Source: a virus (Duplodnaviria; Caudoviricetes). From it: DNA of 63,197 nt. The position numbers and the translations under genes were made by a program. The DNA lies in the IMG/VR virus record IMGVR_UViG_3300036766_001076, positions 1 through 63,197 of that record; one strand, 5' to 3'. The notes beneath the pieces are model-generated. The model was not told the origin of the DNA. It ran no database searches and saw only the letters and a program-made list of their open reading frames with translations. Every line of letters starts with the position of its first letter. Position 1 is the stretch's first letter. Shown here one piece after another: positions 1,620 through 59,112 of this stretch.

Positions 1620-2022
1620 GCGCGATCTCCCCATACGGTTTGACTTCGATCATTCGTCAATACGTGTGTAACCGGCCTCGAACGCCTTTGCAGGGCTGAA
1701 GGACATATAGCCGTCGTCGTAGAGTACGAAGTAACCACCGATTTGTGGCTTGTGCTTCTTCAGATATGGTACATCCACGCGAATCGGCTCTATACCTTCT
1801 TCGACGGGCACAATGTGCGCGCCGTGCAGGCCGATGACGGAGCCGTCGGGCAAAATCTCCACGACCTCATCCTGATCAAGCGCCCGTTCGATTTCGGCAA
1901 TCGAAGGCTGTTCAAGGCGTGCCGTAATGGCCTTGATCTTCACTGCACGGACTTCCTTATGGCACTTGTACCGAGGCATGTCAGACATGGGCGATCTCCC
2001 TGTATGGTTTGACGTCGATCAT
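1612..2022. repeat. 42-bp imperfect direct repeat (1612-1653 and 1981-2022) flanking the 1650-1988 gene
   Basis: 37/42 identical; copies encode MIEVKPYGEIAHV* and MIDVKPYREIAHV* on the minus strand. Confidence 0.9.
1650..1988 (-). CDS. Conserved phage hypothetical protein
   Basis: MPRYKCHKEVRA...GGYFVLYDDGYMSFSPAKAFEAGY, a common small phage protein pattern. Confidence 0.75.
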   Translation of the reverse strand: MSDMPRYKCHKEVRAVKIKAITARLEQPSIAEIERALDQDEVVEILPDGSVIGLHGAHIVPVEEGIEPIRVDVPYLKKHKPQIGGYFVLYDDGYMSFSPAKAFEAGYTRIDE

Positions 2023-3249
2023 CCCCTTGAGCGGCCGGGCCTGCGCCTTGATCCGCTCGCGCAGGAGCACTGGCACCACCGACTTGGTCGCATATTGAAA
2101 CGCCTCGTCATCATCCGCCGGGTGCTCTTGGAGAAATTCTTCCAGTTGCTCTTTCGCTTCTGCCTCAGCGCGGGTTGTCTCGTACCAACAGAGCTGCTCG
2201 CGGGAGAGCTTCACCGGCCGGTGCAGCCAGCGCGGCCCTTGCTCCTCGGCTCGTCGAGCGTGCGCAAGCGTCGTGAGTGAAGGGGACCAGCCCACCGGCG
2301 CTGGCAACCAATGCCTCGACGCCTCCGCGTACCATGGAATGAAAATGTTGTGCGCGCGGGATTTGCCGGACTTGGCAAGCTGCCACTCCAGCCACCACCA
2401 GTTGGTTTTGCCCCGCCCTTGGGCGGTCGATTCCCGCATCCAGAAGGTCAGAGGAGAAACCGCCACCGCTGGCTTGAGCGACACGTCGATCTGCTCAGGC
2501 CGGGTCCAGGTCGCCAATTCTGAATTGTGAATGCAGCTCAGGGTTTTCCCGCGAGCGAGCTGACCCTTGAGGCCGTCCTGCGCGTTCCTCCCGGATTTGT
2601 CCGCGCCGCGGGTGGATTTGGAGGCTCCCCAAAAGAGATGAGACTCCGTGCCGAACAAAAACAAGTCGTTCTTCACCCGCTCTTTCGCGGTCGGCTTCAT
2701 GTACCACGGCAGGTGATCGTAAATCCGCTCGAACATGTCCCAGAGGAAGTCGGAGGAGTCTGGGACATCTGAGGCGAGAAGCCCAAACACGTTCGCGTGC
2801 GTGAGGAGACGATGCGCGAGGATCGCGATGGACAGGGTAGAACCTCCTACCTGTCTGTCCTTGAGCAAATTGACAACGATCCCGTCCGGGTGCCCCTGCT
2901 CGTAGTTCGCCCATTCGACCCTGGCGATCTCGGCGAGGATCAGTTTCTGCGTCTCCCACAGCGGGTAGAGCTTCCCGAGTGCCTGCCCGCCGATGTTGAT
3001 CGTGGTGTACCGCTCCGAGAAATACTTGAAGTCGATCTTGCCGAGGATCTGCTCGTTGACCACAAACGCCTGCTCAGCTTTGGAGAGCGGCCGGGTCTGC
3101 GCGCCTTTCCGGTCCCAGAGGTCCGCCATGCGGAATTGGAATTCCTTGACCTCTTCCACGGAGAATTCCTGCAGTCCGCGCGGGAGATCCTGCGCGAGGG
3201 TACGCTCGACTATTCCACGGCGGATCGCAACGAGTTGAGAGGAGTACAT
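1981..3249 (-). CDS. terL: Large terminase N-terminal ATPase domain
   Basis: LKDRQVGGST (Walker A variant), IHNSE (Walker B), ESTAQG, FIPWY, QEHP...AF; probable start MYSSQ at 3249. Confidence 0.85.
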   Translation of the reverse strand: MYSSQLVAIRRGIVERTLAQDLPRGLQEFSVEEVKEFQFRMADLWDRKGAQTRPLSKAEQAFVVNEQILGKIDFKYFSERYTTINIGGQALGKLYPLWETQKLILAEIARVEWANYEQGHPDGIVVNLLKDRQVGGSTLSIAILAHRLLTHANVFGLLASDVPDSSDFLWDMFERIYDHLPWYMKPTAKERVKNDLFLFGTESHLFWGASKSTRGADKSGRNAQDGLKGQLARGKTLSCIHNSELATWTRPEQIDVSLKPAVAVSPLTFWMRESTAQGRGKTNWWWLEWQLAKSGKSRAHNIFIPWYAEASRHWLPAPVGWSPSLTTLAHARRAEEQGPRWLHRPVKLSREQLCWYETTRAEAEAKEQLEEFLQEHPADDDEAFQYATKSVVPVLLRERIKAQARPLKGMIDVKPYREIAHV

Positions 3250-6573: not shown

Positions 6574-6699
6574 GCCCTCGCCCTCGCCCTCGCCCTCGCC
6601 CTCGCCCTCGCCCTCGCCCTCGCCCTCGCCCTCGCCCTCGCCCTCGCCCTCGCCCTCGCCCTCGCCCTCGCCCTCGCCCTCGCCCTCGCCCTCGCCCTC
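6574..6699. repeat. (GCCCTC)21 perfect hexamer tandem repeat
   Basis: 126 nt; copy number may be assembly-limited. Confidence 0.95.
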
Positions 6700-8915: not shown

Positions 8916-9659
8916 ATGGCGAAGTCCAAAACGGGCGTACGCAAATCCTGGACGGTGGCGGCTGTCCTCGCGGAGTCCCCTTGCTACTCCGAGGATCGCA
9001 TCCGCGCGATCTTCGGCCGACATCGATCACTGACGCTGAGACAGATCCTCGCGCTCGACATCCCGGCGGCGGACCGCGTATGGATGGCCTGTCGAGAATC
9101 GGCACTACCGAAGGAAATATACGAGGCGTGGAAGACCGTGGTACTGACGCGCGTGATCACCACTCATGCGCGAAGCTGTGGCATAGCCACAGTCGAATCA
9201 TGGGCACAACGATGGATCGACGGAACGGATCGCACCGAACGATCCGCGGCTCGGGCGGCTGAGGCTCGGGCGACTTGGGCGGCTCGGGCGACTTGGGCGG
9301 CTGAGGCGGCTCGGGCGGCTGAGGCTCGGGCGGCTGAGGCTCGGGCGACTTGGGCGACTTGGGCGACTTGGGCGGCTGGGGCGGCTCGGGCGGCTGAGGC
9401 TCGGGCGGCTGAGGCTCGGGCGGCTGAGGCTCGGGCGGCTCGGGCGGCTGAGGCTCGGGCGACTTGGGCGACTTGGGCGACTTGGGCGACTTGGGCGACT
9501 TGGGCGGCTCGGGCGGCTGAGGCTCGGGCGGCTGAGGCTCGGGCGGCTGGGGCGGCTGAGGCTCGGGCGGCTGAGGCGGCTCGGGCGGCTGAGGCGGCCG
9601 AATACGAGGCACAGATCATGGAACTGTGCACGCTACTGGATCACAAGGAGAAGTCATGA
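8916..9659 (+). CDS. Protein with AAEAR/ATW low-complexity repeat tract
   Basis: Repeat units GGCTGAGGCTCGGGC and GACTTGGGC across about 9245-9600. Confidence 0.7.
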   Translation: MAKSKTGVRKSWTVAAVLAESPCYSEDRIRAIFGRHRSLTLRQILALDIPAADRVWMACRESALPKEIYEAWKTVVLTRVITTHARSCGIATVESWAQRWIDGTDRTERSAARAAEARATWAARATWAAEAARAAEARAAEARATWATWATWAAGAARAAEARAAEARAAEARAARAAEARATWATWATWATWATWAARAAEARAAEARAAGAAEARAAEAARAAEAAEYEAQIMELCTLLDHKEKS

Positions 9660-9981: not shown

Positions 9982-10014
9982 CCCGGCCGGAGTCATTCGA
10001 GGGTTCCGGCCGGG
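9982..10014. terminator. GC-rich hairpin after the SpoVG-like gene
   Basis: CCCGGCCGGA / TCCGGCCGGG 10-bp stem; no U-tract, so function is uncertain. Confidence 0.4.
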
Positions 10015-10032
10015 AATGGAGGTTACGAAAAC

Positions 10033-10251
10033 ATGGCGTACTTGTTGGTCGTCGTAAATTGGGAAGATCGTATCGTACGTGTATATCGCAACACCGCCGA
10101 AGCACGCGCCGCTTTGAACGCATGGCGTACATTGGATGCCGCATATGTACGCGGAGAAGTCTCCGACACGCACTATCTTTCGTTCACGGAGTACATGGAA
10201 GCAGCAGATATCGACGGGTACACAACACAAACCGAAAGTCAAGAAGCATGA
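10033..10251 (+). CDS. Hypothetical protein
   Basis: GGAGG RBS and ATG. Confidence 0.6.
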   Translation: MAYLLVVVNWEDRIVRVYRNTAEARAALNAWRTLDAAYVRGEVSDTHYLSFTEYMEAADIDGYTTQTESQEA

Positions 10252-10658
10252 CGCCCGCCGCCATCCTACACGCGCTCGGCTTTCCCCCGCCGCCTCTCGC
10301 TGGCCCAGAGTCCACCGCCTACACCTACGGCGCCCAGATCCTCGCCTACATCCTCGCGGCCGACGTGGTGGTGTACGGCCTGCTCTCAGACGAAGATCTT
10401 CGGCTCGCGCGCCATGTCGCTGGGTACGCAGTGGCGAGCCGCGGCATCGAGCCGAAGGCAGCTACCAGGATCAGCGATGTACAGATTGAGATAGCTGGGG
10501 TACTCGCAGTACGCGCGGCTGAACGGGGCGATCAAGCGCCAGCCGTCGAACCGCCTGCACTGGCGCCGGAACAGCCGAACCAAGGGCCAATGGCGCGGTT
10601 GCTCCCGAGGCCGATCCCGCAACCGCCATCCGGACAGAAGGTGACGATTGACTTCTAA
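10248..10658 (+). CDS. Hypothetical protein
   Basis: ATGA overlap; starts MTPAAILH. Confidence 0.55.
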   Translation: MTPAAILHALGFPPPPLAGPESTAYTYGAQILAYILAADVVVYGLLSDEDLRLARHVAGYAVASRGIEPKAATRISDVQIEIAGVLAVRAAERGDQAPAVEPPALAPEQPNQGPMARLLPRPIPQPPSGQKVTIDF

Positions 10659-10977
10659 GGCGCAGAGAATCATTGACGTGCTCACGATCCTCGCGCTAGG
10701 GGTACTGGGGTACCTCTGGCTGATAGGAGTCATGCTGCTATGACCAAATACTTTGTCCGCTTCAAGTTCGTCCGTACCGGCCACGTCATCGATCAGGCGT
10801 TTGGCTCCATGACGGAACGGGAGATCATGATCATCACCTTGGCGAGTACCGCCGTGGTACTGGACACATGGGAAGCCTGATGATCTGTCAATGTTGCGGC
10901 CAACGCATCGGGTACAAACGTGTAGGGTCCGGCCTACTTCTCTGCGTCCTCTGCTACCTGTACCTCAAGGCTCAACG

Positions 10978-11415
10978 ATGATTCTCCGCGAACTCAAAAT
11001 CCTGTACGCCCCCGGTCGCCGAGTCGACCACGACAACCGCCGAGCCTGCACACAACCGCGCGACGCCGCAGCGATCTTGATCCCGCTATTGCAGGACCAG
11101 CCCTCCGAGGTATTCGCGGTACTCCTCTTGGACACCCGCTTGCGCGTGCTCGCCTTCCACGAATGCGCCCGTGGTCAGCTCGCCGGAGTCAACATCGAGC
11201 CTAGGGAGGTATTCCGGCCGGCCATCATCACCAATACTCACACGCTCATACTCGCGCATTGTCACCCGAGCGGAGATCCGACGCCCAGCCCGGACGATGT
11301 AGCACTGACCGTCCGGATGCAGACGGCCGGCGTGCTACTGGGGATTGAGATCCAAGATCACATCATCGTTGGACACGAGAGATATTGGAGTTTCAAGGAC
11401 GCCGGACAACTATGA
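10978..11415 (+). CDS. radC: RadC-like JAB domain protein
   Basis: EVFAVLLLD, PREVF, AHCHPSGDPTPSPDD, DHIIVG. Confidence 0.9.
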   Translation: MILRELKILYAPGRRVDHDNRRACTQPRDAAAILIPLLQDQPSEVFAVLLLDTRLRVLAFHECARGQLAGVNIEPREVFRPAIITNTHTLILAHCHPSGDPTPSPDDVALTVRMQTAGVLLGIEIQDHIIVGHERYWSFKDAGQL

Positions 11416-11645
11416 AACGAACTCCGCAATACTGGCGCGAACACTATCAGATGCGCAAGATGAAGTACGGCCAGGTAATCGCTGTCCGCAATGGCGAGCT
11501 CGTACGCGTCGACGCACGTACATGGGCGTTACACCAGACCGGCGTACGTTCCCGTTGCCGGTTCGGTCGCTGCGATCAAATCAGCGAAGACGTTGCACAC
11601 ATCGAAGAATTCGGAGTCCTCCCAAAGCCATCCGGCCGGCCGTGA
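11412..11645 (+). CDS. Hypothetical protein
   Basis: ATGA overlap with radC-like gene. Confidence 0.5.
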   Translation: MKRTPQYWREHYQMRKMKYGQVIAVRNGELVRVDARTWALHQTGVRSRCRFGRCDQISEDVAHIEEFGVLPKPSGRP

Positions 11646-11658
11646 TAAAAACCCGCCC

Positions 11659-11994
11659 ATGAAAACCCCTCCCGCCGAACACGATCCTTCCTGTTGCTCT
11701 GGTCCCTGTGCCTATTGCGACGCCCAGGACAAGCAGCGCAAGCCGCGCGCCACAAGGGCGCCAAGCAAATCTGGAGGATCTGTGCCAAGGGCGCCAAGCG
11801 ATCCTGGGGTACAGAATTATTGGATGCTGCTTGGGGATGAGGGGGTTGAGGCACTGGGGAGGGGGGAAGTGCTTGCGCCACTCTATATCGTGCTGATGAA
11901 TCCGGAGGAGGGAGATCAGATAATCAAGGGGAAGGTACCTGAGAATATTCAAGAGCAAGCGAGGAGGATGAGGACATGGATGAGAAACGCGTAG
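11659..11994 (+). CDS. Hypothetical protein
   Basis: ORF with a Cys cluster; start uncertain. Confidence 0.45.
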   Translation: MKTPPAEHDPSCCSGPCAYCDAQDKQRKPRATRAPSKSGGSVPRAPSDPGVQNYWMLLGDEGVEALGRGEVLAPLYIVLMNPEEGDQIIKGKVPENIQEQARRMRTWMRNA

Positions 11995-12147
11995 CACTAC
12001 CGGAGAACAAGTACTGCTGGGATCCTCGACATGGCGAGCCGTGCTCACGGTTCTGCAAGGAATGCCGGGAGAACTGTCCGATCAAGTACTGGGAGGATTC
12101 GGAAGTCAGCCGTCAGCGTACTGCGGAATGGGAGGTGCGGAAACCTC

Positions 12148-12597
12148 ATGTTTAAGGATCGGCTTCCCGCCTCGCGCTTCTTCGCCCGAATCATCGACCT
12201 GGACATCGAGTGCCCGCGCTGTGGCACGGTCATCGCCGGCCGTGCGCGCGGAGGTCGCGGCGGCTGGGACCGGACCACGCAACGCTTCGAGTGTACCGCC
12301 TGCAAGTTGATACTCGGCTTAGGCGTCCTCGCTTGGCCGCTCTCGATTGCCCCGTCTGGAGATCGCGGCGCTGGAGACGCGCGGCCGAACTATAGACAAG
12401 CACTCGCACTAAGAGCACAAGCCGGCGGGTTTCTGGTCGAAGAGAAGAAGCGCCAAGCCGCAAGCAAGGATAGGAATGTGGTACTTGTACAAGGGTGTAC
12501 ATGTACTGAGATAGGAGTACCAGGAGTACCAGGAGTACTAGGAGTACTAGGAGTACACCCAGGGTGTCCGGTACATGGACACGGAGAAAAGGTATGA
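12148..12597 (+). CDS. Zn-ribbon protein with GVP/GVL repeat
   Basis: CPRC...CTAC, CTC...CPVHG. Confidence 0.6.
   Translation: MFKDRLPASRFFARIIDLDIECPRCGTVIAGRARGGRGGWDRTTQRFECTACKLILGLGVLAWPLSIAPSGDRGAGDARPNYRQALALRAQAGGFLVEEKKRQAASKDRNVVLVQGCTCTEIGVPGVPGVLGVLGVHPGCPVHGHGEKV
12513..12556. repeat. AGGAGTAC x5 with 9-bp period
   Basis: Copies at 12513, 12522, 12531, 12540 and 12549. Confidence 0.9.
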
Positions 12598-13334
12598 TCG
12601 AGAAATGCGCACATGCGGAGGCCACGTACCAGAAGTACGGTACGCTCTATTGTGAGGATTGCTGGAGAGCTGCGCTCGCGCGTGGGCTGACTCCGGAGGA
12701 ATGGGGCAAACTCAATGCGCAGGCGGCGCTACAGTACTCGCGCAGCCCACGACCCAAGACTACCGAGATCCCGCCTGCGCCAAAACCACAGAGGCAGACC
12801 GACGCACAGATCATTGCGACGCTGACGGAATCCATGAAGCAGGAGACCAATCCTCCGGGCGGGATCGTCGGACTGACGTACGCAGGTTGGACCGTTGTCG
12901 CAACCGATGGCCACAGGTTCTTGGCCATCCCCGCCAAAGAACAAGGCAAGGATCTGAAGCTCGGGGCGTACGTGAGCACCCCGGCTGAGTTGTCTTTCAT
13001 GAGTGAACCGGCAGGCTTCCCGATGGCCCTGCGTCGGGTGCTGACCTGTGCGGACAAGGGCTATGTGAAGTTTGTCAAGGCGGCGGAGGAGGAAGAAGAG
13101 GATCTCGTAATTACCGGGTACACCTATCATCCGGCGGACTATACATGCGAAGCCTCCGAGACGATCCCAGTTTCTGTAAGCGGCTCCTGCGAGTTCTCCT
13201 GTAACGCCGAATGGCTCTTGCCTGCGCTGGCAACCGTCTGCCGCGTGGAATTCTGTGGTGGGGCACTCGGCTATGTGCGAGTACGCGCCGGGTCCGCAGC
13301 GTGGATGTACGTGCAAATGGGAGTGAGACTATGA
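12594..13334 (+). CDS. Sliding-clamp (DnaN)-like partial protein with N-terminal Cys region
   Basis: VVATDGHRF motif; ends YVQMGVRL like clamp C-termini. Confidence 0.5.
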   Translation: MIEKCAHAEATYQKYGTLYCEDCWRAALARGLTPEEWGKLNAQAALQYSRSPRPKTTEIPPAPKPQRQTDAQIIATLTESMKQETNPPGGIVGLTYAGWTVVATDGHRFLAIPAKEQGKDLKLGAYVSTPAELSFMSEPAGFPMALRRVLTCADKGYVKFVKAAEEEEEDLVITGYTYHPADYTCEASETIPVSVSGSCEFSCNAEWLLPALATVCRVEFCGGALGYVRVRAGSAAWMYVQMGVRL

Positions 13335-13704
13335 GAATCTGCCAAATTTGCAAACGTCAGCCAATGGAGTACTGGCCCCAACGCTGCTGCCTCTCGTGCC
13401 TGTTGCGCGAGATGCTGAGAAAGTGCGGGTTCTGACCATGAGCAACGAATTCTGGCCAGATCACCAAGCCCGATGTACGAAGTGCGGACGGACTACCGCT
13501 GTCGCAGACGCACGCCCCGATGGGTGGAAATTGCCGAGCCTGGAGGCGTATCAGCACAATACGACCCCGATCACAGTGCCCGCCCTCTGTTGGCGCTGCG
13601 ATCGGGACGCGCGAGCGGCCGAGATGGCCAAGGAACCGGACCCCCGCGACTAAGGGCGCTAAGCGAATTTGGGCTATCTCGTTTTATCTATTGGATTTAT
13701 AGCC

Positions 13705-13909
13705 TTGTTCACTTGTCCACTAACCCCCCGGTGAACAAGTACCCTCCGAAAGCCCTACCCCTAGACACCCCCCTAAAATGAGTGAACAAACTCTCTATCT
13801 CTTTATTGTTCTAGTACTTAAATTGTTCAGTGGCCTGACTGAACAAACTCCCAGTTCAGTGAACAATACGACTTCCTTACAAGTTTGTTCAGTTGTTCAC
13901 CGTTGTTCA
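13705..13909. other. Putative replication origin (AT-rich, TGAACAA iterons)
   Basis: Nine exact TGAACAA/TTGTTCA copies at 13705, 13732, 13783, 13823, 13840, 13860, 13885, 13893 and 13903, next to the RepA-like gene 3' end. Confidence 0.65.
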
Positions 13910-13960
13910 GTCGCTCTTATTTAACCTTTAAGTACTATGTATTAGAGGTACTTAAGTGAG

Positions 13961-18990: not shown

Positions 18991-19193
18991 ACGCCGCGAT
19001 TCTGCGAATGGGTTTCGACTGGTCGGGGGCGTGGTCGCGGTCGCGGTCGGAGGCGTGGTCGCGGTCGCGGTCGGGGTCGCGGTCGCTGTCGCTGTCGCGG
19101 TCGCGGTCGTGGTCGCTGTCGCGGTCGCGGTCGGGGTCGCGGTCGCGGTCGTGGTCGTGGTCGTGGTCGGGGTCGCGGTCGTGGTCGTGGTGA
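18987..19193 (+). CDS. Ser-Arg/Ser-Trp dipeptide repeat peptide
   Basis: GTGA overlap; GGTCG(C/T/G) hexamer tract at about 19020-19190. Confidence 0.55.
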   Translation: MNAAILRMGFDWSGAWSRSRSEAWSRSRSGSRSLSLSRSRSWSLSRSRSGSRSRSWSWSWSGSRSWSW

Positions 19194-25107: not shown

Positions 25108-25295
25108 TCGATCCCCACGACGTGATCGTCACTGTGGCCTGGGCCGTCGTCGCGGTCTGCGCGGTGCAGGCCGCGCTCGTCTACGGGGTGACGCGGTTGT
25201 TCCTGCACGGGCCGATGTTCAAGGCCAAGCAGGAGCGGGAGCGAGAGCATACCTACGAGCCGATTCAGGGGGAGTTCGGTGGACGTACACGATAA
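25098..25295 (+). CDS. Small membrane protein
   Basis: One hydrophobic segment. Confidence 0.5.
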   Translation: MAVIDPHDVIVTVAWAVVAVCAVQAALVYGVTRLFLHGPMFKAKQEREREHTYEPIQGEFGGRTR

Positions 25296-25953
25296 GCAGA
25301 TCATTCATTCCTCTGACGAGAGCAACTGGCGGACGCCGCCGGAGCTTTTCGAAGCCCTCGACAGGGAGGTCAAGTTCTGCATCGATCTCGCAGCGAACGC
25401 GCAGAACTACTGCACGCGCAATAATCAGAGCGACGACAGGCACCGATGGCTCGGTCCTGGATCGGGCGTCAGTACCCCCGACGCGCTCTCGGTTGATTGG
25501 ACGGCGTTGGTACAGTCGTTCAATGACCTCGATGACCTACGGCAGTTACCGCCCGGATTCCTCAACCCGCCCTACTCTCGCAAGAAGTACCGCGCGACCA
25601 AAGACCCGGCGATGCTGGTGGAGAACTGGGCACGGAAAGCCTACGAGGAGTCGATCAGGGGGTTTACGACCTACGGCCTGTTCCCGTTCGCACCACAGAC
25701 AGGCTGGTTTCGGGAGTTCGTCTACGGCCATCGATACGAACAGAACATCATGGGCGAGCGTCTTGCAGCGAACGAGTGGTCCGGCCATGCCGCAATGGAA
25801 GTCCGGCGTTTCCCGTACCGCCTCTCCTTCCTCCGCCCGGATGGCTCCCCCGCGCAGAATGCCGGCGTGAACTCCTGCGTGATCATCTGGAAACCCAATC
25901 CTGGGTACGTGGGGCCGTGGGTACCGACGGAGAGATATTGGAGTTTCAAATGA
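25279..25953 (+). CDS. Phage DNA N6-adenine methyltransferase (Dam family)
   Basis: WRTPPELF, IDLAA, FLNPPYS, TGWF. Confidence 0.88.
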   Translation: MDVHDKQIIHSSDESNWRTPPELFEALDREVKFCIDLAANAQNYCTRNNQSDDRHRWLGPGSGVSTPDALSVDWTALVQSFNDLDDLRQLPPGFLNPPYSRKKYRATKDPAMLVENWARKAYEESIRGFTTYGLFPFAPQTGWFREFVYGHRYEQNIMGERLAANEWSGHAAMEVRRFPYRLSFLRPDGSPAQNAGVNSCVIIWKPNPGYVGPWVPTERYWSFK

Positions 25954-27904: not shown

Positions 27905-30900
27905 GTATACGAAGCCGACGCACGGACCCAATGGCGGTCTGGGTTGTACCAATTGCGATCTCCACAAGGCCGGGTTCGGCTTCGTGCCCGCGTCCGGTCC
28001 CGCGACTGCGCCGCTCCTCTTCATAGGAGAATCTTCCGGATACCATGAGGCCATCGAAGGCATCCCCTTCATCGGCGCTGCAGGCGGGCTCTTCGGCCGG
28101 ATCCTCCGGCGCTCCTCCCTCGAACGGGACAATGTTCGGGTACACAATTGCCTATCTTGCCGTCCGCCCGAGGACTGGCTCGAAGGCGCCCCGTGGGAAT
28201 TCTCGGCGATCAACCACTGTTCTCAGTACCTCTCGGAGACCTTGAATGAACCCCATAAAGTCGTTGTTACGTTGGGCGGGACGGCGCTCAGAACGGTCCT
28301 CGGACTCCAAGGGTACTCAGGCGTCCGTGTCCAAGATTTTCACGGAACTGTACATCGAGATCCCGCCGATCGATTCTGGGTCATTCCGACATTCCATCCA
28401 TCTCACCTCCAACGAGGGGCGCTTAACCTGCTCGATGTGGTGCGGTTCGACCTCAGCATTGCTCAGCGTCTCGTCCGAGACGGCGGAATTACTCGGCGGC
28501 CGGTGTCCGTGCTGCAAGACCCGCCTGTGGACTTCTTCGCTGCCTGGGTCGAACGCTATCTGGCTGCGTCCTCCGTTGATCCCGACGCCGTCCCCCTCGC
28601 CGTCGACATCGAAACCAACGACAAGGCCGGTGGCCGCGACGAAGGTGAACTCACCGCCGATGACACCTCCACCGAAATCACCCGCTGGAACTTTTCCTGC
28701 AACCCGGATGAAGGGATCACGGTCCCGGACCATGAAGCCTACCGGCCGCTGATTGCCAAACTCCTCGCAGCGCCAGGAGTGAAGTACCTCTGGAACAAGT
28801 GGTACGACCGGAGCAGGATTCTCCTGCACGGCTATCAGGTCGGCGGCGAATGGCTCGACCTCATGTGGGCGGCCAAGCACCGGCAGAGCGACCTGCCTCT
28901 CGGGTTGGGGTTCTGGGCACCGTTCTACTCTGACTACGGCGCGTGGAAGCACCTCGGGAAGCTCCAAGGTAGAGAAGCAGAATATGCCGCTGTGGACGGG
29001 CTACAGACCCGCCGGGTAGGCGATGGGCTGGTTGGAGAACTCGTGCAGCGCGGGCTGTGGGACGCCTTTTACCGGCACAATCACGAACTGGAGCAGGAAG
29101 TGCTCCGGCCCGCGTACGACGTAGGGGTACTCGTAGACAAGGATCGGCTGAACGCATTTCATACCAAGCTCGATAGAATTGCGGGAGAGAAACTTGAGGA
29201 ACTCAAAAAAGCCGAAGCCGCCGGGAGTCTCCGGCCGAAGAATGGCTATGCCAAGAAACCGAAAGGCGATCCGCCCATCCCGCCGGCCAGCATCCTCGGG
29301 AAGAAGAAAGGGAAGGAGCGCACATCGAAGGACGAGTACGTCGAATCCGGCGTGCACCTCGTGGATAGACCCCTCGACGTGGGAGTTCGTGTCTGTCGGA
29401 CGTGCGGGGCAGTTGAGGTCGGTCCTAAGCATGACTGTTTGCGGGCGGCCCGCAAGAGGGACGTTGAAGGCGCTGGCGGATCTCGTCCTCTACCTGATAT
29501 CGCAACCGAAGTTCGGACGGTTCGTCGGTGGTTCTGGTCTCTCCCCTTCAACCCCGACTCCCCCCAACAAATCCTCCGGTACATAAAAGAGACCGGCTCC
29601 CAGCCCGGCCGCGCCAAGAAAACGCGCAAGGACACGACCGACAAGAAAACCCTGCGTAAACTCGCCGCGCAAACAGGCGATCTGATCTACTCGACCATCT
29701 TGGATTACAAGGCGGTCAAGAAGGTCGACTCGACCTACGCGCTCGGCTCTTTGAGGAGGATCTGGGCAGATGGCCGCTTACATCCGCAGTACACGTTCAG
29801 GCCGAGTACGTTCCGCCTCAGCTACATCAACCCGAACATTACGAATGTCGTCGCCGACAAAGACGGCAAAGAGTCCTTGGCGGCCGGTTTCCGGGCCTGT
29901 ATCGTTGCAGCTCCCGGGTGTCGGTTGCTTGAGGTCGACTACCGCGGCGTCGAGGCAGTCGAAACAGGATGGTGTTGTGGAGATCCTGATTACGTTCGGC
30001 TTGCCTCGCTCGGCGTCCACGCCTTCGTTACGTCATTCGTCATTGGGAAACCGGCCTCGCTGAGTTGGTCAGACGATGACTTGGCGATGTACTTCGCCGA
30101 CATCAAGAAGCACTATCCGCTGGAATACGATCGCTGCAAGCGCACCGTCCACGGGAAGAACTACGGATTGACCATCTACGGCATGGTGGAGAACTTTCCG
30201 GAGACCTATCCGAGCCTGAAGATCGCGCAGCAGTACGAGGATCTCTATTACCAGGTCGCCACTAAACTCTCACCGTGGCACAAGATGCTTCGGGACCGCG
30301 CCCACGAGCACGGGTTTCTCGGCGGACCGCCCTCAGCGAACTACGGTCAGCTCATCTCCTCCGGGCAACATCATCCGTTTGGGTACCAACACTGGTTCTG
30401 GGGCGTGCTGGCCTACCAGCCAATCTCCGCTGCGGAGCTGCACCACATGAAGCGGCAGGGGAGATCGAACTGGTGTTTGATCCAAGGCAGGCCGTTCAAG
30501 GTGAAGTACGGCGAGGATTCAAAACGTTGCATCGCGTTTTTTCCACAGAGCACGGCGGCCGGCGTCCTCAAGGAAGCCATGCTTCGGTTGTTCCACCGGG
30601 AGTCCCCGTCCTACATTGGAGACGCCTACTACGGTAGAACTCCACTCCGTGCGCCGATTCATGACTCGTTGCTGTTGGAGATTCCAGACGCTAAGTTTGA
30701 CTTGGTAGCGTCGATCATTATCAACGAGATGCAACGGCCGATTCTGGAGCAGCCGATCCCGCCGGAGTGGGGCAGGGGCACGCACCTCGCGGTAGGGGTT
30801 GCGGCCAAGACCGGCCGAGACTGGGAGGCGATGGAGGATCTGGCGGTACCTAAAGTACTGTACGTACCGACCGAGAGTACAGAGTACTTAGGTGAGTGTG

Positions 30901-30944
30901 CGGAAGACGAGGAAGAGATTCAAGCGTTGGAGCGGAGGGTGTAA
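27894..30944 (+). CDS. polA: DNA polymerase family A with N-terminal family-4 UDG domain and 3'-5' exonuclease
   Basis: UDG: CTNC, GESSG, PFIGAAG, HPSHLQR; Exo: DIET, NKWYD, YAAVD; Pol: DYRGVE, KRTVHGKNYG, IHDS. Confidence 0.93.
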   Translation: MLPKYTKPTHGPNGGLGCTNCDLHKAGFGFVPASGPATAPLLFIGESSGYHEAIEGIPFIGAAGGLFGRILRRSSLERDNVRVHNCLSCRPPEDWLEGAPWEFSAINHCSQYLSETLNEPHKVVVTLGGTALRTVLGLQGYSGVRVQDFHGTVHRDPADRFWVIPTFHPSHLQRGALNLLDVVRFDLSIAQRLVRDGGITRRPVSVLQDPPVDFFAAWVERYLAASSVDPDAVPLAVDIETNDKAGGRDEGELTADDTSTEITRWNFSCNPDEGITVPDHEAYRPLIAKLLAAPGVKYLWNKWYDRSRILLHGYQVGGEWLDLMWAAKHRQSDLPLGLGFWAPFYSDYGAWKHLGKLQGREAEYAAVDGLQTRRVGDGLVGELVQRGLWDAFYRHNHELEQEVLRPAYDVGVLVDKDRLNAFHTKLDRIAGEKLEELKKAEAAGSLRPKNGYAKKPKGDPPIPPASILGKKKGKERTSKDEYVESGVHLVDRPLDVGVRVCRTCGAVEVGPKHDCLRAARKRDVEGAGGSRPLPDIATEVRTVRRWFWSLPFNPDSPQQILRYIKETGSQPGRAKKTRKDTTDKKTLRKLAAQTGDLIYSTILDYKAVKKVDSTYALGSLRRIWADGRLHPQYTFRPSTFRLSYINPNITNVVADKDGKESLAAGFRACIVAAPGCRLLEVDYRGVEAVETGWCCGDPDYVRLASLGVHAFVTSFVIGKPASLSWSDDDLAMYFADIKKHYPLEYDRCKRTVHGKNYGLTIYGMVENFPETYPSLKIAQQYEDLYYQVATKLSPWHKMLRDRAHEHGFLGGPPSANYGQLISSGQHHPFGYQHWFWGVLAYQPISAAELHHMKRQGRSNWCLIQGRPFKVKYGEDSKRCIAFFPQSTAAGVLKEAMLRLFHRESPSYIGDAYYGRTPLRAPIHDSLLLEIPDAKFDLVASIIINEMQRPILEQPIPPEWGRGTHLAVGVAAKTGRDWEAMEDLAVPKVLYVPTESTEYLGECAEDEEEIQALERRV

Positions 30945-32014: not shown

Positions 32015-32591
32015 AAGCGTTGAACTGCTCGGGGACGCTCGTAGGTTGGCTATCCAGACCATTCGAGCAAGGCATTACAGCCAGTCTGTTCCGTCTGGAA
32101 AATCGCACTACTACCAGCACGGAACTGCTCTGGTTGTGTTCTCGATACCGGCGAATCAATTCGTCGGTCGGTTTCTGTTTGGGCGCCCGCGTGTGGTATG
32201 GGAATTGAGCCGTCTGTGGGCACCAGACGGCCACGAGCGCAATCTGTTGACGCGGGCGATCTCCTGCTCCGTGAAAGCCTTCAAGCAGCACGAGCGCGGC
32301 GTCTGGGCATTGGTGTCCTACGCAGATCCGAACGTCGGCCATTCCGGTTTTGTCTACCGGGCGGCGTCCTGGCTGGCGTGCGGACAGGTTGAAGAATCTC
32401 GGTACTACCGATCCGTCGCGACCGGAACCGTTGTGAGTCGTCGCAAGTTTCATTCTGGCGGAACCTCTATGACGAAAGCGCAGATCCTCGCGTTGGGCTA
32501 CACGGAAACAAAACAACCCGGTCGCTACCGTTACTGCCTGCCGTTGACATCCACGGCTCGGCGCGAGTTCCTGCGAAAATGGTCGGCGTAG
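32004..32591 (+). CDS. Mom-family adenine-modification (GNAT-fold) protein
   Basis: RHYS, WELSRLW, LVSYADPNVGHSGFVYRAASW, YRY. Confidence 0.82.
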   Translation: MEAESVELLGDARRLAIQTIRARHYSQSVPSGKSHYYQHGTALVVFSIPANQFVGRFLFGRPRVVWELSRLWAPDGHERNLLTRAISCSVKAFKQHERGVWALVSYADPNVGHSGFVYRAASWLACGQVEESRYYRSVATGTVVSRRKFHSGGTSMTKAQILALGYTETKQPGRYRYCLPLTSTARREFLRKWSA

Positions 32592-58713: not shown

Positions 58714-59112
58714 CTACTCGACCGGCCCGAGTGTCGACGGCACGAGAGGGTCCGAGGGGGCGACCTCCGGGGGCACCACAACGACAGGAGCCGCCTCCGC
58801 AACGACAGGAGCCGCCTCCGCAACGACAGGAGCCGCCGCTTCGGCCACCTTGGTCTTCGAATGCTGCGCCGTGAGCCCGGGATGGCGCGCCATCGCCTTG
58901 CGCGCGGCATCGTCCTTGGTCTCGCCGTGCTGCACGACGACGGTCAGCTGGCCGTTGCCATCGTCGAGGGTGACTTCGAAGTCGGCGCTGGTGTCAGTCA
59001 GACGATTGCGCTCGGCGAGAAGCGGAGCTTTCTCCTCCTGCAATCCCGTGATCGCCGCATCGATCTTGGCGAGGGCGGCGTTCACGTCCTTCAGCCGGGT
59101 CTGCTCGGCCAT
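58714..59112 (-). CDS. Coiled-coil protein with VAEAAPV repeats
   Basis: 21-bp tandem repeat at 58779-58837. Confidence 0.6.
   Translation of the reverse strand: MAEQTRLKDVNAALAKIDAAITGLQEEKAPLLAERNRLTDTSADFEVTLDDGNGQLTVVVQHGETKDDAARKAMARHPGLTAQHSKTKVAEAAAPVVAEAAPVVAEAAPVVVVPPEVAPSDPLVPSTLGPVE

Follow-up and report, generated by a model that had tools for sequence, protein, structure and literature searches.

A GTAC peak in a GC-rich phage genome consists of a coding repeat with variable copy number and of codons for conserved motifs

Introduction

At the pac site of phage P1 and at Escherichia coli oriC, the palindrome GATC is locally much denser than in the rest of the genome, and these clusters are controlled by Dam methylation. 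P1 pac is part of a coding gene, and the lambda origin, with its iterons, lies inside gene O. Coding variable-number tandem repeats (VNTRs) of phage and viral genes, including those specifying Gly-X-Y runs, combine a period that is a multiple of three with a conserved open frame, near-identical copies, and a copy number that varies between strains. Phd/YefM antitoxin operators carry GTAC or TGTACA cores in paired palindromes, 11-13 bp apart at the promoter (PMC1802561). In this study, we analyze a dense cluster of GTAC sites in the virus record IMGVR_UViG_3300036766_001076 (Duplodnaviria; Caudoviricetes), a complete record of 63,197 bp and 62.4% GC, which was examined at its full length and is called the window throughout. 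The cluster covers the 3' end of a gene for a small, Cys-rich zinc-ribbon protein (12148-12597, + strand) and the beginning of the next gene, and it had been proposed from the sequence alone to be a modification or protein-binding signal. Among the matches listed in our literature search, there was no published account of a GTAC excess in phages.

The locus shares features with each of these systems. Its 9-bp tandem repeat (12513-12556) is built like a coding VNTR, and viral contigs unrelated to the window contain Gly-Val-X runs made of the GGAGTACNN unit, too; however, the repeat comprises five triplets and belongs to a 149-aa protein rather than a fiber protein, in which it occupies the loop that separates two zinc-ligand motifs. 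As at P1 pac and oriC, a 4-bp palindrome is packed far above genome density. The cluster sits in a replication-gene neighborhood. It is ~9 kb away from the gene for the terminase large subunit (1981-3249), half of it stems from one recent duplication, and it has no demonstrated cognate methyltransferase. Similar to the lambda iterons, direct repeats and palindromes are found in the tolerant linker of a gene from a DNA-metabolism region, beside genes for RadC, a clamp-like protein, and an AAA_25 ATPase. In contrast to the iterons, the units are 9 bp long, contiguous, and lack an adjacent AT-rich unwinding stretch, and the zinc-ribbon protein has no known initiator function. With the Phd/YefM operators (PMC1802561), the locus shares a pair of TGTACA words (12486-12491 and 12496-12501), the first of which has extended palindromy like the L repeat TCATTGTACAATGA, but the centre-to-centre distance is 10 bp and the pair is intragenic rather than at a promoter. 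None of the 94 open reading frames (ORFs) used for Pfam profile searches matched the PhdYeFM family, and by this test the locus is not a Phd/YefM-type operator.

Results

Most of the GTAC peak lies in one gene and its in-frame tandem repeat

Direct counting located GTAC at every one of the 13 positions listed in the original prediction (12481 to 12640). The accompanying statement that the sites fall in different genes and frames needs correction, as the peak is neither intergenic nor scattered over unrelated sequence: ten are located in one gene, five of these in a single 9-bp tandem repeat, and the remaining three are found at the beginning of the next gene, within 50 bases. The peak is thus made up of a coding repeat whose copy number varies and of codons for conserved motifs. 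In our set of 91 genes, which was predicted with a self-trained codon model and curated by eye in the 10-13.4 kb region, the zinc-ribbon gene is the top outlier, with 11 GTAC compared to 2.0 expected from its amino-acid sequence and the genome codon usage. Its last 120 bases (12478-12597) hold the ten peak sites, where 1.4-1.5 are expected; 10 of the 13 TA dinucleotides in this stretch are part of GTAC, and four of the ten sites are extra copies of one unit.

This unit belongs to a tandem array of 4.9 copies of AGGAGTACY (12513-12556, + strand; period 9, 97% matches; Tandem Repeats Finder), which is in frame with the gene. It reads GGA GTA CCA/CTA, that is Gly-Val-Pro/Leu, with the triplets GVP GVP GVL GVL GVH, and accounts for the GTAC sites at 12517, 12526, 12535, 12544, and 12553. 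Relative to all eight homologues of the protein, the repeat is an insertion between GCxC and VHPGCP, in a loop whose length varies widely between homologue groups, including those of the two relatives introduced below, G001 and C38. Copy number also differs among close sequences: L058, a 1054-bp contig with 98% identity and the single match of a metagenome scan, contains four copies where the window has five, and strain contigs from two sediment runs display gaps inside the array, of 9 bases in one contig and of 18 and 20 bases in two others. Given that the units differ at one position only, the array is young. It has the properties of a coding VNTR, namely a period that is a multiple of three within an open coding frame, copy variation by whole units, and a length-tolerant location. 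A collagen-like helix needs a long uninterrupted Gly-X-Y run, for which five triplets are too few, and the array therefore does not form a collagen-like Gly-X-Y domain. Among 54 unrelated viral loci with at least three GGAGTACNN units, 26 are open in frame for ±150 nt, and 20 are part of a Gly-X-Y run eight or more triplets long.

We infer that replication slippage multiplied the 9-bp unit GGA GTA CYA in frame and that the array is neutral at the DNA level. The array occupies a length-variable loop between the two zinc-ligand motifs of the small zinc-ribbon protein, and the neighboring GTAC sites represent codons for conserved residues of this protein and of the next one. The genome as a whole seems unusually prone to coding repeats, with further tandem arrays whose periods are multiples of three (6, 9, 6, 27, 9, and 21).

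The cluster is embedded in two adjacent protein-coding genes

Judged from its sequence conservation, ORF 12148-12597 is a real, conserved gene. Its 149-aa product joins an N-terminal zinc ribbon (ECPRCG...CxxC) to a C-terminal NVV..GCxC...VHPGCP[VI]HG motif. A library of 5.8 billion proteins contains eight homologues with 32-44% identity, of which six align over 97-100% of the query length, and the Cys/His columns are invariant across the alignment. In sediment-metagenome strains of ~90% identity, 20 of the 25 listed differences (12180-12429) affect codon position 3 of the frame. In Pfam, the Mu Com zinc ribbon is matched weakly, below the cut-off (E 0.002) and through the CPRC knuckle only, and the AlphaFold model of the protein, with a pLDDT of 50, is too poor to use. 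In the ~90% strain contigs, the sequence becomes unrelated exactly where the zinc-ribbon gene starts (12147) and where the following gene ends (13335), and these sharp breaks in similarity suggest module exchange at gene boundaries.

The following gene (12594-13334, + strand), which encodes a 246-aa protein, overlaps the zinc-ribbon gene in the stop/start sequence ATGA (12594-12597). The GTAC sites at 12626, 12635, and 12640 are contained in ACG TAC CAG AAG TAC GGT ACG (T-Y-Q-K-Y-G-T) at its beginning, and both the 98% and the 79% homologue of the protein retain YQKYGT. Three homologues were present among the 5.8 billion proteins. The protein carries an N-terminal Cys motif, and its C-terminal part is weakly beta-clamp-like: the best match among solved structures is DNA polymerase III beta (4trt_A, E 0.039), and three of the four matches are bacterial beta sliding clamps. 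Searches of IMG/VR returned no relatives of this gene, and neither G001 nor C38 has a match to it; this absence from both relatives suggests that the gene was inserted behind the zinc-ribbon gene.

GTAC density in the early region follows codon usage

Roughly 30 further GTAC had been reported upstream of the peak, and there are exactly 30, between 10038 and 12293. They belong to 10030-12480 (+ strand), the run of small genes leading up to the start of 12148-12597. Together with the peak, 43 GTAC are found in the 2614 bp of 10030-12643, compared to a genome mean of 5.95 per kb, and 10001-11000 (18 GTAC) and 12001-13000 (20 GTAC) are the two highest of 63 1-kb bins.

The genes at 10033-13334 have a GC content at third codon positions (GC3) of 0.65, versus 0.77 elsewhere; the early genes contain A-ending codons at about twice the frequency, and GTA makes up 0.34-0.40 of Val codons versus 0.089. 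Lower GC3 and more A-ending codons result in more TA, which amounts to 31-48 per kb in the early region versus a mean of 21, and in proportionally more GTAC. Once the TA count is given, GTAC is not significantly enriched in this region (30 of 81 TA, compared to 28% genome-wide; p=0.05). Synonymous shuffling within genes predicts 21.6±2.4 sites versus the 30 observed, a ratio that equals the genome's, and local trinucleotide expectations of 14.8 and 5.9 stand against 18 and 8 observed sites. When genome-wide codon usage is applied instead, 14-15±3 sites are expected and the excess is ~2x, which merely restates the different codon usage of the early genes. In the 9.5-14 kb interval, a promoter scan detected no sigma-70-like sites, and the five terminator-like sites are no more than shuffled sequences contain.

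The genome-wide excess is compositional

The excess had been assigned to the early region, but it extends over the whole genome: the window contains 376 GTAC, whereas dinucleotide shuffles give 125.7±9.9, and none of 100 shuffles reached 376. The ratio of observed to expected sites (O/E) for the whole genome is 1.73 with base composition, 3.03 with dinucleotides, and 1.06 with trinucleotides. The original prediction had named disappearance under a codon- and dinucleotide-preserving null as its refutation. When such nulls were run, the excess largely went, from 3.0x to 1.34x with synonymous shuffling and 1.06x with trinucleotides, while 1.28-1.42x stayed under codon-aware nulls. We conclude that both the region-wide and the genome-wide over-representation of GTAC are compositional.

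The sequence context of TA is consistent with this conclusion. Among 1336 TA dinucleotides, 715 have G before and 662 have C after. C follows GTA in 376 of 715 cases and CTA in 148 of 273, without synergy between the flanks; the flanks are therefore independent, and the 4-mer as such is not under selection. According to the first-pass annotation, the 376 sites divide into 187 G/TAC (with TAC read as Tyr), 63 GTA/C, and 69 GT/AC, and 57 lie outside genes. In the curated annotation, the density is 5.96 per kb in coding and 5.9 per kb in non-coding sequence. Over the whole genome, no longer shared word around GTAC emerged, as no 7- to 9-mer dominates, and the metagene profile of GTAC near gene starts and stops is flat.

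Two runs of the within-gene synonymous shuffle gave expectations of 236.5±10.2 versus 319 coding GTAC and of 238.7 versus 321 (ratio 1.34, z 7.4; z about 7-8 overall). In the ranking of these ratios, GTAC comes third, behind GATC (1.34) and CGAT (1.30), which are similar in size. Drawing codons from genome usage for the given proteins predicts 277±12 GTAC versus 376, and conditioning on the preceding base as well raises the prediction to 293.5±12 (1.28x). A/T-flanked TA words are depleted (0.5-0.7), with observed versus expected counts of 68 versus 107 for ATAC, 64 versus 95 for TTAC, 54 versus 77 for GTAT, and 31 versus 62 for GTAA. The residual mirrors this depletion, which points to an effect at the trinucleotide level. 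In the genome-wide test for a selected tetranucleotide, no such signal was detected: the codon-aware residual of GTAC is no larger than that of GATC and CGAT. In this TA-poor genome of 62% GC, TA is retained chiefly in the Tyr codon TAC where the preceding codon ends in G or C, and in GTA/NGT before C, and the alternatives TAA, TAG, TAT, ATA, and TTA are avoided. A dinucleotide null therefore expects too few GTAC, and a trinucleotide null predicts the count.

Other phages show the same pattern under the dinucleotide null. By dinucleotide O/E, GTAC ranks first among the tetranucleotides of the unrelated mycobacteriophage L5 (2.05; 25 kb, 63% GC) and of L059, a piece of G001 (2.27). For the relatives, O/E ranges from 1.33 to 2.27 with dinucleotides and from 0.67 to 0.97 with trinucleotides. 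The window phage is ~1.3x richer in GTAC than a neutral codon model and the relatives are slightly poorer, a difference that is real and small. Trinucleotide-corrected GTAC values are 1.06 in the window, 0.91 in G001, 0.67 in C38, and 0.69 in L002 and L003. As a side observation, CTAG is strongly avoided in the window and in all relatives compared (0.2-0.77).

Local clusters exceed the null models

A number of observations weigh against an account in which GTAC has no function of its own. At the level of the genome, these are the residual of 1.28-1.42x (z about 7), which appeared under every codon-aware null, and the synonymous-shuffle ratio of 0.98 in L5, which lacks the window's residual. 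At the peak, removing tandem copies 2-5 leaves six of seven TA within GTAC (p=0.003), and the non-repeat sites use rare codons, at residues that often differ in the homologues. A second cluster, at 30846-30887 (+ strand), has six sites in 42 bp, where 1.05-1.35 are expected and the maximum in 400 simulations (200+200) was four. In the relatives, the densest GTAC cluster of G001 (5 in 48 bp) occupies the 75-bp spacer directly upstream of the homologous zinc-ribbon gene, and that of C38 (7 in 250 bp) is located 300-430 bp downstream of the zinc-ribbon homologue. Of 136 strand-symmetric tetranucleotides, GTAC and the overlapping TACA/TGTA are the only ones whose top cluster lies at most 700 bp from the gene in all three genomes.

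Within 12481-12506, four GTAC in 26 bp include the perfect 10-bp palindromes CTTGTACAAG (12484-12493) and GTACATGTAC (12497-12506), and the segment holds two of the eight TGTACA words of the genome as well as an inverted repeat (I4; 11 nt, 91% complementary). The same bases encode V-L-V-Q-G-C-T-C-T across the NVV..GCxC motif, with the rare codons GTA, TGT, ACA, and ACT. Further downstream, the codons for the conserved CP-V-H-G-H contain a hairpin (12564-12582, + strand; GTGTCC-gGTACat-GGACAC); a single base separates its end from GGAG, the ribosome-binding site of the next gene, and its right arm also pairs with 12495-12506 (I3; 12 nt, 92% complementary).

The second cluster, which uses rare codons as well, is located in the family A DNA polymerase gene, in the part for the C-terminal tail, which is not conserved. 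Five of its sites fall within 30 bp, versus a null maximum of four, and six of eight TA are part of GTAC. The last ~30 residues of the polymerase do not align with the G001 homologue, and no GTAC cluster is present in the G001 polymerase tail. With tandem repeats masked, the best GTAC cluster of the genome has six sites in 50 bp, and AGAG and CGTA, 4-mers that are similarly abundant, reach the same value. The clusters at 12481-12575 and 30846-30887 exceed every null used.

A cis-acting element as an alternative

Near-identity and protein searches of the phage collection revealed no close relative of the window, and two relatives were compared at the DNA level. G001 is a complete IMG/VR record of 68,485 bp with matches to 30 of the 91 window proteins; a scan with a conserved neighboring gene returned G001 again and no further genome. 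C38 (L066 / G002) is a 34.5-kb contig, colinear with the window, which is a fragment and ends within the helicase-homologous region. Its portal protein is 63-66% identical to that of the window, and it comes from a genome bin labelled Acidobacteria, the sole hint at a host.

Palindromes flanking the repeat and clusters beside the gene in the relatives keep a cis-acting element among the candidates. The GTAC palindromes and the AGGAGTAC array could constitute an operator- or iteron-like site to which a phage protein would bind as a dimer, perhaps the zinc-ribbon protein encoded next to it. Such an element would belong to the RadC/zinc-ribbon/AAA_25 neighborhood of the phage group, and would here be overlaid on coding sequence. 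We consider this possible, although rather unlikely. In its favor, the share of TA dinucleotides within GTAC is significant in each case, with 10 of 13 in the window, 6 of 7 without the extra copies, 5 of 6 in G001, and 7 of 13 in C38 (12% genome-wide). GTAC is under-represented in C38 overall (0.52x), and none of 1000 random placements reached the seven sites of its cluster, which lies within a nested inverted repeat holding GCAAGTACTTGC and TTGTACGTACAA. These two words are perfect palindromes, as are CTTGTACAAG and GTACATGTAC of the window, and the sites are built with rare codons. Palindromes with a GTAC core are proven Phd/YefM operators (PMC1802561). Moreover, the top 100-bp GTAC cluster is at most 340 bp from the homologous gene in all three genomes. 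For a top cluster to lie within 700 bp of the gene, the per-genome chance is 8/136 in the window and 21/136 and 13/136 in the relatives, the latter two rates giving ~0.015 for both relatives together.

Against such an element, the position of the cluster differs, being upstream of the gene in G001, inside its 3' end in the window, and downstream in C38, and the three elements share 9-mers and 10-mers at chance level (6-12% and 2.2% of random windows). Pfam searches of the 94 ORFs recovered neither Phd/YefM nor helix-turn-helix proteins, nor any further regulator known to bind DNA. The repeat is of recent origin and unstable in copy number, the second cluster has no counterpart in G001, and the comparison draws on two relatives. 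In addition, a far clearer array is found 1.1 kb away in a true intergenic region, where TGAACAA is present in nine copies in 205 bp. A more specific version, which we regard as more doubtful still, holds that a hitherto undescribed group of GC-rich, podovirus-like phages, with one member from the Acidobacteria bin, carries a palindromic GTAC-core control element beside the gene with the double zinc motif, bound by that protein or a partner; in the window, this element would have moved into the loop of the gene and expanded as 9-bp iterons, with the units serving both as codons and as predicted binding sites.

As a potential origin or operator array, the GTAC peak is far less convincing than the TGAACAA copies at 13705-13909. 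These copies are part of a non-coding, AT-rich segment (13654-13960; GC 0.42), which adjoins the 3' end of the minus-strand AAA_25 gene. Counting TGAACAA/TTGTTCA on both strands, 9 of the 19 genome copies lie in these 205 bp, and 3.9 copies are expected genome-wide. The segment also contains three copies of GTACTTAA; the genome has 16 TTAA in all.

RNA structure and DNA modification

The self-complementary GUAC units and the five AGGAG units, which resemble Shine-Dalgarno sequences, could also influence how the mRNA folds or how ribosomes are loaded at the next gene, to which translation is coupled. The overlap of stop and start codons, the hairpin one base before the next GGAG, and the presence of AGGAG in each repeat unit would be compatible with this, and the 12476-12512 hairpin has a predicted energy of -11.9 kcal/mol (z -2.55), with z -2.06 for the whole 146-nt stretch. 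However, this stretch was matched by 8 of 200 shuffles, the hairpin beside the ribosome-binding site is no stabler than shuffled sequences (z -0.24), and the G001 element is unstructured (z -0.53), which leaves an RNA-level role improbable.

In another proposal, GTAC would be the target of a phage modification enzyme, with the cluster acting as a methylation-controlled switch or as a decoy against host restriction at GTAC. The phage encodes a relative of N6-adenine methyltransferases (25279-25953, + strand) and a Mom-family protein (32136-32591; PF25680, E 1.1e-19). GTAC is not avoided in the window (trinucleotide O/E 1.06), compared to 0.67-0.91 in relatives and L5, as would fit a protected site, and G001 has no match to either the methyltransferase or the Mom-like protein. 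The family assignment of the methyltransferase is marginal: PF05869 is matched at E 8e-07 with 29.3 bits versus a cut-off of 28.1, the protein belongs to PHROG 111, and TIGR01712 scores 31.6 bits, far under its cut-off of 97. It is probably a distant Dam-family member, whose specificity is not readable from sequence. Several points count against the proposal: tetranucleotide-level selection is absent genome-wide and GATC behaves like GTAC; the cluster is coding, largely a recent duplication, and distant from both the terminase genes and the Mom-like gene; and clusters are found in two relatives, one of which (G001) lacks both enzymes. We found no evidence that connects GTAC with the phage methyltransferase or with a function as a decoy, and we regard this proposal as very improbable.

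Gene content around the locus

Upstream of the zinc-ribbon gene, the curated early genes on the + strand are located at 10033-10251, 10248-10658, 10740-10880, 11412-11645, 11659-11994, and 11976-12155, together with a RadC/JAB gene at 10891-11415 (+ strand; PF04002, E 1.4e-36). Profile searches identified structural genes (terminase, portal, major head protein, and SU10-type adaptor), replication genes (family A DNA polymerase, Dda-like helicase, RadC, and AAA_25 ATPase), and an RNA ligase and a cold-shock domain protein in addition to the Dam-family N6-adenine methyltransferase and the Mom-family protein. The family A DNA polymerase (27984-30944) has an N-terminal domain of the uracil-DNA-glycosylase superfamily (PF03167, residues 4-146). 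Tandem arrays elsewhere in the window include 21 perfect copies of GCCCTC at 6574-6699, ~43 imperfect copies of the 9-mer GCGGCTCGG at about 9246-9603, ~28.5 copies of GGTCGC at 19021-19191, and 2.8 perfect copies of a 21-mer at 58779-58837.

Discussion

We favor, with moderate confidence, an account in which GTAC has no specific function in this phage and its abundance reflects composition, a slipped coding repeat, and codons of conserved motifs. Our confidence in this account and in the competing ones overlaps in part. As for the signal proposed originally, the enrichment on which it was built is mostly compositional; the local clusters, on the other hand, beat every null, and binding of a protein is compatible with them, though not demonstrated.

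The case of GTAC illustrates how a striking k-mer excess in a GC-rich phage, here threefold with a peak of 13 sites, can come from trinucleotide and codon usage together with one slipped coding repeat. It also identifies dinucleotide shuffles as the wrong null for TA-containing words in GC-rich genomes of this kind. For the biology of the phage, the remaining lead is the recurrence of GTAC-dense palindromes beside the zinc-ribbon gene in distant relatives, and the work defines a real, conserved gene for a small zinc-ribbon protein in a phage lineage that is nearly unannotated.

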